DNA from: Candidatus Hodarchaeota archaeon
Lineage (GTDB): Archaea > Asgardarchaeota > Lokiarchaeia > Sigyniarchaeales > SOKP01
NCBI GenBank assembly: GCA_048886685.1
Contig: JBHLKM010000014.1
Coordinates: 32,001-96,000 of the forward strand
Direction of reading: 5' to 3'
DNA length: 64,000 nt
Part shown: positions 36,370 to 45,720 of the stretch, piece by piece
Layout: each line of letters begins with the position of its first letter
Numbering within the stretch: the first letter of the stretch is position 1
Notes under the pieces: model-generated
Databases searched by the model: none
Told to the model about the DNA's origin: nothing
Seen by the model: only the letters and a program-made list of their open reading frames with translations
Translations under genes and position numbers: made by a program

Positions 36370-36802
36370 ATTTTTTTCATAAAATCTATATCTTAATTAT
36401 TTTATTAAAACTTCTTTTTAATTAAAAAATAGACAGTTTTCTTTAAATGCTTTAAATATAAAGTTCAAATTTAAATAGATCTACCCATAGCACCTTTTTT
36501 TTAAATTAAACTAAAGATTTAAATAGTTCCTTTTGTTTAATATAGATGGCACCGACGTTAAAAGAAAATTCTCTATTAAAGGGTTCAGAGTAATACAAAG
36601 CGCATCAACAGTTTCTATAATTAAGGATTTTATCCATTTCAAAATCTAGCAGAATTAAAAAAAATATTGTTGTAAAAATATGGAAATAATCCCAGCAGTA
36701 AAAAAAAATCATATAGCAATACAAAAGTTTATCGATTGGGATAAATGTAAGAACATGTTTTATAACAACATATATTTAGACAAGTGGAAACTAGTAATAA
36801 AA

Positions 36803-36892
36803 ATGCCACTCATTCCAAGAGAAGACTCTGATGAAGATATTAAAATAAAAAAGTTCGACCTTGAGAAGTACACTTATTTATGCTCTTACTGA
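36803..36892 (+). CDS. Candidate 29-aa peptide (3' part of track ORF 36680..36892)
   Basis: MPLIPREDSDEDIKIKKFDLEKYTYLCSY; TATATTTA about 25-30 nt upstream of ATG 36803. Confidence 0.3.
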   Translation: MPLIPREDSDEDIKIKKFDLEKYTYLCSY

Positions 36893-41869: not shown

Positions 41870-42766
41870 TCAGATCAGTGCCGCCATATCTTTCACATTT
41901 TGAGCGATTCTCATGATACTTTTAATTTTCTCTTTATCTTCATAATCCAAGTTACTCAATAACTTATTTGCTTTATCGAATAGTACATCTTTTTTTATCC
42001 ACACAATAAATGCTAATTTATCGTCTTTCTGTAAAAATGCATTCATGACTTCATTAAAATATTGTTGGGTTTCTTTATAAAGATCTAATACCTTCCCATT
42101 CAAACGAAGCTCTTTCAATATTTCCCCAATTTCCTCTATTTTTTCACAGAACATACGATAATCCATTGCTTCAAGAGGTGTAAATTCACTGGTTGACGAT
42201 ATATAAATTCCTGTTCTGAGATAAGTTCTAATGTGAATGACTAATATAAAATAGAAGTTTCGTAATTGCTCGAAATTATCGTTTAAATCCTCAAATGATT
42301 TGTTTTCTAAATCCTCGAACATATTTACAACTAGATATAACAATCGTTGGATCAGTTTTTTAGTGGGGATCTCTTTGTACCCAAAATTTTGAACGATTAT
42401 TTTTTGTTCAGTTTCCTCGATAATTTCTGTGTTTGGGAGTCTATTGACATATCTTCTAATAAATTTCCTTAAGCTTTTATTTATTTCCCTTTCTGAAATT
42501 ATGGTTATCTTTCTTTCTCCTGCCAAACTTTTCTTTAGTAGTTCCCAGATAACGTATTGATCAGCTTCTAATATGATTTCATCTTGTATAACTTCACCTA
42601 CTTCTTGCATTTTTGGCATAACTAATAATGTGCCATCATTTCGAATTTCCATACCGATTGATTCACCAGCATCTAATTCATAATTCTCTGTCCATTTTTT
42701 CGGCAGGCTTACTACTAACGAACCCCCTATTTTCTGTATTTTTCGATAAAATCTTTCCATAATCAA
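41870..42766 (-). CDS. AbrB-PhoU domain transcriptional regulator
   Basis: RKIQKIGGSLVVSLPKKW AbrB N-terminus; EKIEEIGE and RIAQNVKDMA PhoU-like helices. Confidence 0.85.
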   Translation of the reverse strand: MIMERFYRKIQKIGGSLVVSLPKKWTENYELDAGESIGMEIRNDGTLLVMPKMQEVGEVIQDEIILEADQYVIWELLKKSLAGERKITIISEREINKSLRKFIRRYVNRLPNTEIIEETEQKIIVQNFGYKEIPTKKLIQRLLYLVVNMFEDLENKSFEDLNDNFEQLRNFYFILVIHIRTYLRTGIYISSTSEFTPLEAMDYRMFCEKIEEIGEILKELRLNGKVLDLYKETQQYFNEVMNAFLQKDDKLAFIVWIKKDVLFDKANKLLSNLDYEDKEKIKSIMRIAQNVKDMAALI

Positions 42767-42787: not shown

Positions 42788-42848
42788 ATTTATACTTTTT
42801 TATTGTGTATATATATTTTATACCATAGATTTATACGGGAATTTATAC
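42788..42848. promoter_or_regulatory. Four TTTATAC direct repeats in the divergent promoter region
   Basis: TTTATAC at 42789, 42817, 42830 and 42842. Confidence 0.5.
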
Positions 42849-42892
42849 ATCTTCATATTAGAAAAAAAAGAGAAAAAATGTGATTAAAAAAA

Positions 42893-43033
42893 ATGTCATT
42901 ATTTAATATATTTCGACCGGAAAAGGGTAAAAAGAAGTTAGAAGAGCTCAAAGTAACGCTCCAAATTAATCCAGAATATTATAAGGAGCTAAAAATGCTT
43001 AGATTAAAGAGAGACGCTAACCCATATTTCTAA
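42893..43033 (+). CDS. 46-aa small protein, copy 1 (not in ORF track)
   Basis: MSLFNIFRPEKGKKKLEELKVTLQINPEYYKELKMLRLKRDANPYF; GTGAT upstream; paralogue at 44172. Confidence 0.85.
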   Translation: MSLFNIFRPEKGKKKLEELKVTLQINPEYYKELKMLRLKRDANPYF

Positions 43034-43075
43034 AATATTTTTTCCTACTATTTTTAATTTCCTTGTTTAAAACAG

Positions 43076-43738
43076 TTATAAAATTATTTCCATTTCATAT
43101 CTCCTTTCTTCAATGATTTCAGGAAGCGATTCAAAATTGTTTAAACTCAAATCTAAATATTGTAGAGATTTTAGCTTTGCGAAGGAATCTGGAAGGGAAG
43201 ACAGTTGGTTGCTTCTTAATATTAATTCTTGAAGCGATGTAAGGTTCCCTATAGATTCGGGCAATTCTGTTAATTTGTTTCCATTTAAATTAAGATATTT
43301 AAGATTTTTATAATCACCGATGAAATCTGGAAGCCTGATTAATTTCGCGTCTACTATAAAAAGAGCTTCAAGCAATCGTAATTCTTTAAAAGAGTCTGGT
43401 ACTGTTTTTAAGGCGTGGTATAGATGAAAATTTAAATAGAGCTTTTTTAAAAACTTAAAATTAGCGATAATCTCTGGAAATGATACTAAATCACATGTTC
43501 TGCATTCAACATCAAACTTTATGCATTCCTCGCATACAGAAGGGTCCGTTAGTCCGATCAAATCGACATGGTGAGATTTAACGGTGAATAACTGAGGATA
43601 ATAACACCACCCATCACATAAAGAGAATTTCTCAACTAACGAGATACCATCGTCATAGTTCCTTTCTAACTTTTTTAGAGCTCGTACTTCCTCTTCAACA
43701 ATATCTGCTCCTTGAAATTTTGCCACCGAATAAGTCAT
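43076..43738 (-). CDS. Leucine-rich repeat protein with Cys-rich N-terminal region
   Basis: LxxLxLxxNxLxxLP repeats (LPESIGNLTSLQELILRSNQL); CDGWC and CEEC..CRTC. Confidence 0.9.
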   Translation of the reverse strand: MTYSVAKFQGADIVEEEVRALKKLERNYDDGISLVEKFSLCDGWCYYPQLFTVKSHHVDLIGLTDPSVCEECIKFDVECRTCDLVSFPEIIANFKFLKKLYLNFHLYHALKTVPDSFKELRLLEALFIVDAKLIRLPDFIGDYKNLKYLNLNGNKLTELPESIGNLTSLQELILRSNQLSSLPDSFAKLKSLQYLDLSLNNFESLPEIIEERRYEMEIIL

Positions 43739-43742
43739 TTTT

Positions 43743-43768
43743 GTTCACAAGGTTTTTCGTTCACAAGG
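43743..43768. repeat. Tandem duplication of GTTCACAAGG just upstream of the LRR start
   Basis: GTTCACAAGG at 43743 and 43759 (16-bp period). Confidence 0.8.
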
Positions 43769-43930
43769 ATTTTTGATGTTATTTTGTTATACATAGAAAA
43801 TAACCTATATAAATTTAAAGACTATTAGCGAACAGTGATTCGTGAAATTATGGAAATTAACATTTGTGAAAAACTAATACTATAATTCAAGAAAAAAGAT
43901 TGAAAAAAAAAATTGATAATAGATAGAACG

Positions 43931-43951
43931 GATCATATAATTTATATGATC
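43931..43951. promoter_or_regulatory. Perfect 10-1-10 inverted repeat, candidate operator
   Basis: GATCATATAA-T-TTATATGATC. Confidence 0.5.
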
Positions 43952-44171
43952 TGGCACCCACTTTATTATTAGAATATATGATATTTTAATTTTGATCCTA
44001 TATTATAAATATATTTAATTGATATTCTCATATTGTAAAAAGAATATATATGAAAATGATCATTCAGATTTTCATATTAGTACTAATTCCTGATCATTAT
44101 TCGATATATATTTATACATGATTTTATATTTATGTAACGTAGATAAAAAATAGAAGAAGTGATAAAATAAG

Positions 44172-44312
44172 ATGATATTATTCGATTTTTTTAGGCCAGA
44201 AAGAAATAAAAAGAAGTTAGAAGAACTCAAAAAAACGCTTCAAATTAATCCGGAATATTATAAGGAACTAAAAACACTTAAATTAAAAAGAGATGCTAAT
44301 CCATATATGTAA
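44172..44312 (+). CDS. 46-aa small protein, copy 2 (not in ORF track)
   Basis: MILFDFFRPERNKKKLEELKKTLQINPEYYKELKTLKLKRDANPYM; GTGAT upstream; 37/46 identical to copy 1. Confidence 0.85.
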   Translation: MILFDFFRPERNKKKLEELKKTLQINPEYYKELKTLKLKRDANPYM

Positions 44313-44424
44313 AATATTTTTTTTCTTACTATTTTTGATTTACTATTTTAAAACATAACTATGATTATTTTGAAAATAGTCTCGATATTCAAAATTACAG
44401 AATAAAATAGAAAATAAAAAAACT

Positions 44425-45720
44425 TTAAAGTTTCTCAAAAATATGTATACACATTGCTGCTTCTCCAGGGCCCAAATTGCCTCCTCCATTATGAGCAAGA
44501 GCTATTTTAGCGTCTTTAACTTGCCTTTCTCCAGCTTCTCCACGCAATTGTGCTACCAATTCATACATCTGTGCAACACCGGAAGCACCTATAGGATGTC
44601 CACGAGCTAACAACCCCCCGCTAGGATTAACAGCCACTTTTCCATCGAGTTGAGTAGCCCCACTTTCTGCAAATGGACCACCTTGCCCTTCAGGGCAGAA
44701 ACCTAACCCTTCAGTAATATGAAGTTCTGCATAAGCAGTTGCATCATGAACCTCTGCTACGTCAATATCTTCTGGATCAAGACCAGCTGTTTTATAAGCA
44801 ATATCAGATGCGATTTTTATTCCGTTAAATGGTTGACGTGAGCCAGATCGTAAGACTGAAGCCCGTACTAAAATTGCTCTATCTCTAAGACTTGGATTGT
44901 CATTTAAAAATTCCTCAGAACAAACTATTGCAGCTGCTGAACCATCTCCAGTAGGAGCACACATGGCTCTTGTTAGAGGATATGCCACAACATAATCTTC
45001 CATAACCTGTTCAACGGTTTGAGGGAATGTATACTGAGCTAATGGATTCATCGTAGAATTATTATGATTTTTTGCTGCAATAACAGCAATTTGACGTTGA
45101 GTAGTTCCGTACCTCTTCATGTGAGCTCGAGCACCCATTGCATAGAAATCCATAAAAATTGAATGATCTTTCTTTTTTGGCTTTTCTCCTCCCTCCTTCG
45201 TATCTTTTGCTTTCTCCTTAGCTGCTTGTTTGTTTCCCTCTTCAATTTGTTTTTTCAACTGACCAATCATTTTAAGAGTGTCCTCAACATCGGTCCCTGC
45301 GATAAATCCGGACATTGCACCCATTCCCGGTATCCCGCCGGATCTCACAACAGGAGGTTTGTCAAAATACATTTTTTCTGTTCCCACCGCTAAAGCAACG
45401 TTATAAACACCTGCTTTAACTGACAACCAAGCATTATGAAATGCACTACTTCCACCTGCGCATGCATTTTCTACATTCGTAATGGGTATTTTATCAATAC
45501 CATGGGTACTTAGTGCAACTTGCCCTCGAATACAATGCTGATATTCTGACTGACCCCAACCCGAATTACTAAACCAGGCTGCTTCTAAATCACCTTTACT
45601 CAAACCACAATCCTTTAGGGCATCCTCAACAGATTCACCAGTCATACTTTTCATAGTCCTTCCTGGAAGCTTCGCAAACCGAATCATCCCTACACCTATA
45701 ATATAAACATTTTCGCTCAT
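44425..45720 (-). CDS. Thiolase-family protein (SCP-x type)
   Basis: VENACAGG, AEVHDA, NPSGGLLARGHPIGASG. Confidence 0.92.
   Translation of the reverse strand: MSENVYIIGVGMIRFAKLPGRTMKSMTGESVEDALKDCGLSKGDLEAAWFSNSGWGQSEYQHCIRGQVALSTHGIDKIPITNVENACAGGSSAFHNAWLSVKAGVYNVALAVGTEKMYFDKPPVVRSGGIPGMGAMSGFIAGTDVEDTLKMIGQLKKQIEEGNKQAAKEKAKDTKEGGEKPKKKDHSIFMDFYAMGARAHMKRYGTTQRQIAVIAAKNHNNSTMNPLAQYTFPQTVEQVMEDYVVAYPLTRAMCAPTGDGSAAAIVCSEEFLNDNPSLRDRAILVRASVLRSGSRQPFNGIKIASDIAYKTAGLDPEDIDVAEVHDATAYAELHITEGLGFCPEGQGGPFAESGATQLDGKVAVNPSGGLLARGHPIGASGVAQMYELVAQLRGEAGERQVKDAKIALAHNGGGNLGPGEAAMCIHIFEKL

Follow-up and report, generated by a model that had tools for sequence, protein, structure and literature searches.

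The locus

The window, by which we mean the whole 64,000-nt stretch of DNA analysed here, carries two open reading frames of 46 codons on its forward strand. They bracket an opposite-strand LRR gene, and the first of them lies head-to-head with the gene of an AbrB-PhoU-type regulator, from which it is separated by a spacer rich in TTTATAC repeats. The features considered in this work are the following.

41870..42760, minus strand: gene for a 296-aa regulator, with an AbrB/MazE-type N-terminal domain, an alpha/beta linker and a PhoU-fold six-helix bundle without RxxERxxD[RH]
42789..42848, no strand assigned: four TTTATAC repeats (42789, 42817, 42830, 42842) in the divergent spacer, a candidate operator/promoter array
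42880..42884, plus strand: GTGAT Shine-Dalgarno-like site of copy 1
42893..43033, plus strand: micro-gene copy 1, 46 aa
43034..43075, plus strand: T-rich terminator-like tail of copy 1
43076..43738, minus strand: LRR gene, 220 aa, apparently a lineage-specific passenger between the copies
43892..44171, plus strand: conserved element upstream of copy 2, with a palindrome at 43931-43951, TGATCA at 44057 and 44091 and TTTATAC at 44111
44159..44163, plus strand: GTGAT Shine-Dalgarno-like site of copy 2
44172..44312, plus strand: micro-gene copy 2, 46 aa, an old tandem duplicate whose coding part seems to have been homogenised with that of copy 1
44313..44350, plus strand: T-rich terminator-like tail of copy 2
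44425..45720, minus strand: thiolase-domain gene, convergent on copy 2, a frequent but not universal neighbour

Coding evidence and translation signals

The two reading frames had been described in a first-pass annotation as a duplicated micro-gene under protein-level selection, and the observations behind that description hold. Both copies encode 46 aa and share 37 of 46 residues, exactly ten of the identical residues being specified by differing codons. Differences between the copies at codon positions 1, 2 and 3 number 7/6/14, and dN and dS amount to 0.14 and 0.86 by the NG86 method, or to 0.14 and 0.39 by LWL85; at the DNA level, the repeat shared by the two copies is about 250 nt long, with 79% identity. 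The upstream GTGAT, 8 nt before each ATG, is complementary to the 3' end of the 16S rRNA of the same genome (GGATCACCTCCT, contig C33). Across the family, GTGA precedes 17 of 18 loci; the share is 8% among long genes and 1.9% among intergenic ATGs. Similar T-rich tails do follow both copies, and a T6 run occurs within 40 nt after the gene at 15 of the 18 family loci, compared to 24% of long genes.

The dN/dS comparison that had been asked for beforehand gave a ratio well removed from 1: among 14 coding sequences, dN was lower than dS in all 61 unsaturated pairs (median dN/dS 0.24), 30 further pairs being saturated at synonymous sites. The other five reading frames are closed in all 14 sequences, and starts and stops are conserved across the 46-mer homologues. 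A search for a longer gene of which the micro-genes might be a fragment, admittedly a weak search, yielded no match among proteins of 99-2000 aa. Judged from their sequences, the two reading frames almost certainly encode a real 46-aa protein, and the earlier notion of a real microprotein family is borne out by purifying selection and by 54 homologue clusters. The label of unannotated genes, on the other hand, is only partly deserved, because homologues do appear in gene-caller output, under the name of hypothetical proteins.

Members and distribution of the family

Among the 54 homologue clusters retrieved by profile search, 36 are of exactly 46 aa. In the family alignment L19 and N26 are invariant, and L23, P27, Y29 and K37 nearly so. 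The NPY-hydrophobic ending noted in the first-pass annotation is present in both window copies but is lineage-specific, the family consensus ending in K-A-Y-hydrophobic. A profile search of 398 genomes of the phylum recovered the 46-mer in 12, every one of them from the window's own genus, a figure to be read as not found in the remaining genomes, rather than as absence from them; the genomes compared are kin, and counts over them are not independent. Named homologues belong mostly to Lokiarchaeota or Promethearchaeota, with a few in Thorarchaeota. Three extended homologues of 56-60 aa are orphans, with no AbrB-PhoU-type regulator within the flanks retrieved, and one extended homologue is located in GCA_000986845.1, which we take to be Lokiarchaeum GC14_75.

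The 46-mer had no informative match in Pfam, NCBIfam, PADLOC, the PDB (by sequence), the ESM Atlas or Rfam; structure searches with Foldseek and VIA-align likewise returned nothing informative (best Z 4.1), and no description of the microprotein family was found in the literature searched. Two further observations were made at related loci. In another genus (L065-L069), the slot holds a weak homologue of 50-54 aa together with a basic ORF of 40-41 aa, and loci with a 42-43-aa variant (L042:2710-2937, L124:3723-3950) contain a conserved 75-aa gene that is convergent on the regulator.

The head-to-head regulator and its candidate operator

Synteny with AbrB-PhoU genes was a check suggested at the outset: the regulator stands head-to-head with the 46-mer in all 11 assessable genomes, the assembly of the twelfth containing only a copy 2 located at the end of a contig. 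Six further assembly loci show the same layout, and the 46-mer-linked regulators form a single clade (support 100/98). In the window regulator the N-terminal domain is of the AbrB/MazE type (Pfam E 9e-7), and the six-helix bundle aligns with that of PhoU structure 1t72 over 165 residues (Z 18.5, rmsd 2.8). In PhoU, the motif RxxERxxD[RH] has been proposed to bind phosphate (PMC12301784); it occurs in none of the 54 non-canonical regulator rows and is kept in both canonical paralogues. In its AbrB/MazE-type domain and PhoU bundle, the neighbour of the 46-mer resembles archaeal AbrB-PhoU regulators and also PhoU of bacteria (PDB 1t72, 2i0m, 1xwm), but it departs from the canonical proteins in lacking this motif and in facing a micro-gene. 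The canonical AbrB-PhoU paralogue of the same genome (G000 C3, 338 aa) retains RxxERxxDH and lends itself as a natural control for its degenerate counterpart.

The 126-bp divergent spacer contains four TTTATAC repeats against 0.06 expected, in a count made post hoc, and the position of one copy is kept in most regulator loci. We infer that the array is the operator of the regulator, although TATA boxes could explain part of the repeats. A genome search for three-repeat TTTATAC arrays gave no convincing further regulon members, and scans for sigma-70 promoters and stem-loops were uninformative. The PhoU-type regulator had also been put forward as a partner of the microprotein; what is supported of this proposal is a genetic link, through synteny and the candidate operator, to a putative binding partner. 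A type II toxin-antitoxin system with a MazE/AbrB antitoxin was rejected, given that all loci are head-to-head and no co-directional two-gene operon was seen; MazE/doc-partner matches fell far below the cut-off.

Other regulator subclades (L018-L035, L070-L091) have different micro-genes in the slot, some of 50-94 aa with the pattern W..S..YY.LNP.KF.FG and others of 50-57 aa with YGS.GKKYLYLY; in many cases a UbiA prenyltransferase gene comes next. At L029 (G020:C313:300-1187) a regulator copy is broken by one TGA, and its partner is a 37-aa ORF with FNPRY.

The LRR gene and other neighbours

The two micro-genes do bracket an opposite-strand LRR gene, as first described, and the 46-mer might be the partner of its product. 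The LRR gene is convergent to copy 1 in the window, and a different LRR gene is likewise convergent to the single copy it adjoins in G016 and G108, but the similarity between the window LRR and those of G016 and G108 is at repeat level only. No LRR gene lies between the copies at the double-copy loci of G024, L122 and L126, just an LRR remnant is left in L075, where both micro-genes are intact, and the gene is absent at most loci. The gene is, on the evidence of gene order, a lineage-specific passenger and not a conserved partner, and an LRR partnership, already largely refuted by synteny, strikes us as exceedingly unlikely. Elsewhere in the window, a 70-aa ORF at 36680-36892 (plus strand) without a Pfam match is kept in L126 and L128 and has a paralogue on contig C25, and L038 and L039 contain a gene resembling it in the vicinity of orphan 46-mer homologues.

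Duplication history

The 280-nt element upstream of copy 2 is common to all copy-2 loci, and a paralogue of it precedes an unrelated gene on contig C7. Upstream sequences of matching copies across genomes are 80-88% identical for copy 1 and 68-86% for copy 2, as opposed to 64-70% between copies within a genome. In the coding parts this relationship is often reversed, with 81% identity within the window genome and 91% within G099, and 71-72% between their matching copies. The pattern fits an old tandem duplication followed by gene conversion of the coding parts. Because the coding parts would have been converted, the dN/dS of the window pair presumably reflects divergence since conversion. On contig C7 (G000 C7:29660-30091; L045:2660-3092), a 230-nt leader separates the paralogous element from an uncharacterised 199-aa gene after it; the leader contains an inverted repeat (TATTCCGAGT / ACTCGGAATA), and an Rfam search returned no match.

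A permuted superfamily of microproteins

When the 46-mer profile was run against the small ORFs of the same genome, dispersed paralogues came to light on contigs C12, C11, C9, C7 and C10, bringing the superfamily to about nine members in the window genome if one includes a further C9 gene, in tandem, that was identified solely through its motif. The sister branch comprises at least 429 further clusters, with up to nine matches per genome, and, like the 46-mers, was found in one Lokiarchaeia family only among the 398 genomes searched. Homology between the two branches is indicated by hhalign (78-85%, E ~1e-5), with a score of 28.6 against a maximum of 15 for shuffled sequences, and the match rises to 91% when residues 1-9 of the 46-mer are moved to the C-terminal end. 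Two motifs are common to both branches: helix-NPxY[FY]xE-helix and S-x-[FY]-[ND]-hydrophobic-F-R. The latter is found at opposite termini, as S-K-[FY]-[ND]-hydrophobic-F-R-x-[FY] at the C-terminus of the sister branch and as S-L-F-[ND]-I-F-R-P at the N-terminus of the 46-mers. Scored with the sister tail profile, in a test designed post hoc, the 46-mer N-termini outscore all 3036 proteome N-termini, none of which reaches their median score. To judge by these profile comparisons, a larger NPxY[FY] microprotein superfamily, reported here for the first time, includes the 46-mers as a branch that has undergone circular permutation.

The two branches carry opposite net charges (about +4 in the 46-mers, median -5 in the sister branch) and retain the aromatic motifs. 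Many sister genes face double-wHTH-TPR regulators beside Rab-like GTPases, and some paralogues stand alone; a GTPase signature is present at 9 of 18 sister loci and at none of 24 46-mer loci. In G011 and G107, a sister gene of 82-87 aa occupies the 46-mer slot, opposite regulators nested within the 46-mer clade. This gene shares 57% identity with a relative from a wHTH-TPR/GTPase locus, and in G011 it lies behind the same TTTATAC repeat array. The replacement is a single event, and promoter capture without functional equivalence may account for it. The closest known relatives are the NPRYFEE microproteins of Lokiarchaeial wHTH-TPR/Rab-like GTPase modules, which have a homologous core, the F[ND]IFR motif and the head-to-head regulator layout of the 46-mer; the 46-mer differs from them in being permuted, in being basic instead of acidic, in its association with an AbrB-PhoU regulator and in lacking a GTPase signature.

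Several paralogous loci deserve separate mention. Three tandem NPxY-type micro-genes (58, 84-87 and 81 aa) have a wHTH-TPR regulator on one side and Rab-like GTPases on the other at G000 C9:118545-119955 (L104:1546-2956). A promoter motif, TCTAAGACTC-N-AGTT-N-TTAAACTATATA, is common to four sister micro-genes (G000 C7:70400, C9:120050, C10:25153 and C11:41566) and had no convincing match elsewhere in that genome. The paralogue closest to the 46-mers, of 70 aa, is encoded at G000 C12:62309-62521 on the minus strand (L099), near phosphomannomutase-like and UvrC-like genes (names given by inspection), and has an orthologue in L058.

Proposed mechanism and alternative explanations

We propose, from comparative sequence data and at slightly less than an even chance, that the 46-mers are regulated two-motif effector peptides binding a protein target common to the whole superfamily. 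The regulator is probably bound at the TTTATAC array, with copy 1 under its control, and copy 2 would be driven by the second upstream element; with separate upstream elements, the same peptide would therefore be made under two conditions. An AlphaFold2 model of the 46-mer has a short helix at residues 3-6, a helix at 9-25, an N-P turn and a helix at 29-42, with a pTM of 0.45. The non-globular peptide would probably fold upon binding, its two aromatic motifs docking on a larger conserved protein common to the superfamily and modulating it; N-P may be conserved merely as a helix cap. The 46-mer would hence be a regulated effector or adaptor, and not the private ligand of one regulator. Both aromatic motifs survive permutation, charge reversal and regulator switches, which would argue for one common target, with the regulators setting timing only. 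The neighbours vary by branch (thiolase, UbiA, GTPases, succinyl-CoA synthetase), and no pathway emerges from them. Cyanobacterial AtpTheta and the Methanosarcina proteins sP26 and sP36 are stand-alone, regulated helical proteins of less than about 70 aa that bind larger complexes. The 46-mer is likewise small and stand-alone, is predicted to be helical and would be regulated and act by binding a larger partner, but no sequence or fold relationship was found with AtpTheta (named in PMC9241938) or sP26/sP36, and its family is multi-copy, permuting and under several unrelated regulators.

The main rival to a common target is a cognate feedback ligand: acting as co-repressor or anti-repressor, the peptide would attach to the degenerate PhoU bundle of its cognate regulator, and peptide sensing would take the place of phosphate sensing. 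This would agree with the lack of RxxERxxD[RH] in all non-canonical regulators and its retention by the canonical paralogue of the genome, with the presence of some small ORF in the same slot in most regulator subclades, and with the alteration of one and the same helix, CEKIEEIG to SEKIVE[LI]A, in the two partner-swapped regulators. Yet both motifs are retained in paralogues that stand alone or beside unrelated wHTH-TPR regulators, the three extended orphans have no such regulator in the flanks retrieved, and homology of the clade-B slot peptides (W..S..YY.LNP.KF.FG) to the 46-mers was not established (hhalign P 0.04-0.07), all of which leaves a feedback ligand rather unlikely. In RRNPP systems, a small peptide gene adjoins its regulator and is often divergent from it. 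That arrangement is seen here, but the regulator combines AbrB with a PhoU fold and has no TPR match, for which reason an RRNPP HTH-TPR receptor was rejected, and neither a signal peptide nor a hydrophobic segment was evident on inspection.

Other readings concern the peptide itself. HbYX-like docking of its C-terminal tail in the alpha-ring pockets of the 20S proteasome, raised as a speculation in the first-pass annotation, calls for a hydrophobic P3, Tyr in position P2 and a P1 of any kind (PMC8907193), and this strict form fails in the window copies, which end in P-Y-F and P-Y-M. Only 6 of 54 proteins conform to it, or 28 if Ala/Gly are allowed, and eight members end in Tyr. Nonetheless, Tyr/Phe is found among the last three positions in 52 of the 54, the penultimate residue being Y in 34 and F in 6 (background for Y, 4%), a clade with a 10-residue extension still ends in L-Y-[IF], which keeps the reading alive, Gly-Tyr-Leu is accepted as HbYX in archaeal PbaB (PMC3605417), and the genome encodes two 20S alpha subunits. 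The penultimate Tyr/Phe is what most family members share with the HbYX activators PAN and PbaB; the differences are a P3 that is mostly Ala, Pro or Gly, no known oligomeric scaffold, and a K-[AV]-Y that is internal both in the sister branch and in the C12 paralogue, with 9-16 more residues after it, so that the Tyr is older than its terminal position. We regard proteasome docking as very unlikely. A free TPR helix-B/turn/helix-A fragment, completing or capping TPR scaffolds such as the wHTH-TPR regulators in trans, appears highly improbable: six TPR proteins do match residues 7-36 (E 5e-6 to 8e-4), several sister genes adjoin TPR proteins, and the turn positions agree (hydrophobic 24 in 53/53, Pro 32 in 52/53), but the defining small residues do not (A20 0/53, A27 3/53, G8 0/53), nor does Y11 (0/53), and none of 48 members has a Pfam TPR match at E<=0.1. 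As to a compact antiparallel hairpin fold of the TPR kind, the 46-aa model has a pTM of 0.45 and its best structural match a Z of 4.1. Just as doubtful is a short amphipathic membrane anchor in the portable terminal motif, by which the peptide would hold a partner at the membrane. The motif invariably stands at a terminus, whichever of the two it is, the median hydrophobic moment over 46-mer residues 2-9 is 0.61 (near the 90th percentile for the proteome) and lipid-metabolism neighbours are common; against this, the median moment of the sister motif is just 0.34, and the motif, 7-8 residues long, is conserved in sequence (N/D, F, R) as in a protein-binding motif. PIP-box, MIM1, WH2 and PTB-ligand readings were dropped by eye for misfits at key positions.

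Significance

To our knowledge, almost nothing has been learnt about regulation in Asgard archaea, nor have their small proteins been catalogued. The superfamily is lineage-specific, multi-copy and not described before; being found in one Lokiarchaeia family among 398 genomes, it speaks of lineage innovation and provides no evidence on eukaryote origins. One permuted peptide family joins two regulator systems, and a degenerate PhoU-type regulator gains a candidate operator and a candidate target gene. The peptides are also short, synthesizable baits with built-in controls in their two motifs and two branches. More generally, one may envisage a peptide switchboard, quite improbable as it now seems, in which two-motif microproteins, interchangeable among themselves, would each answer to a sensor-regulator of its own (degenerate AbrB-PhoU, wHTH-TPR together with Rab-like GTPases, and others) and all act on one conserved machine. 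These peptides would be prokaryotic short-linear-motif regulators of that machine if it were a eukaryote-signature protein, be it a small-GTPase system, an adaptor of the trafficking type or the proteasome.
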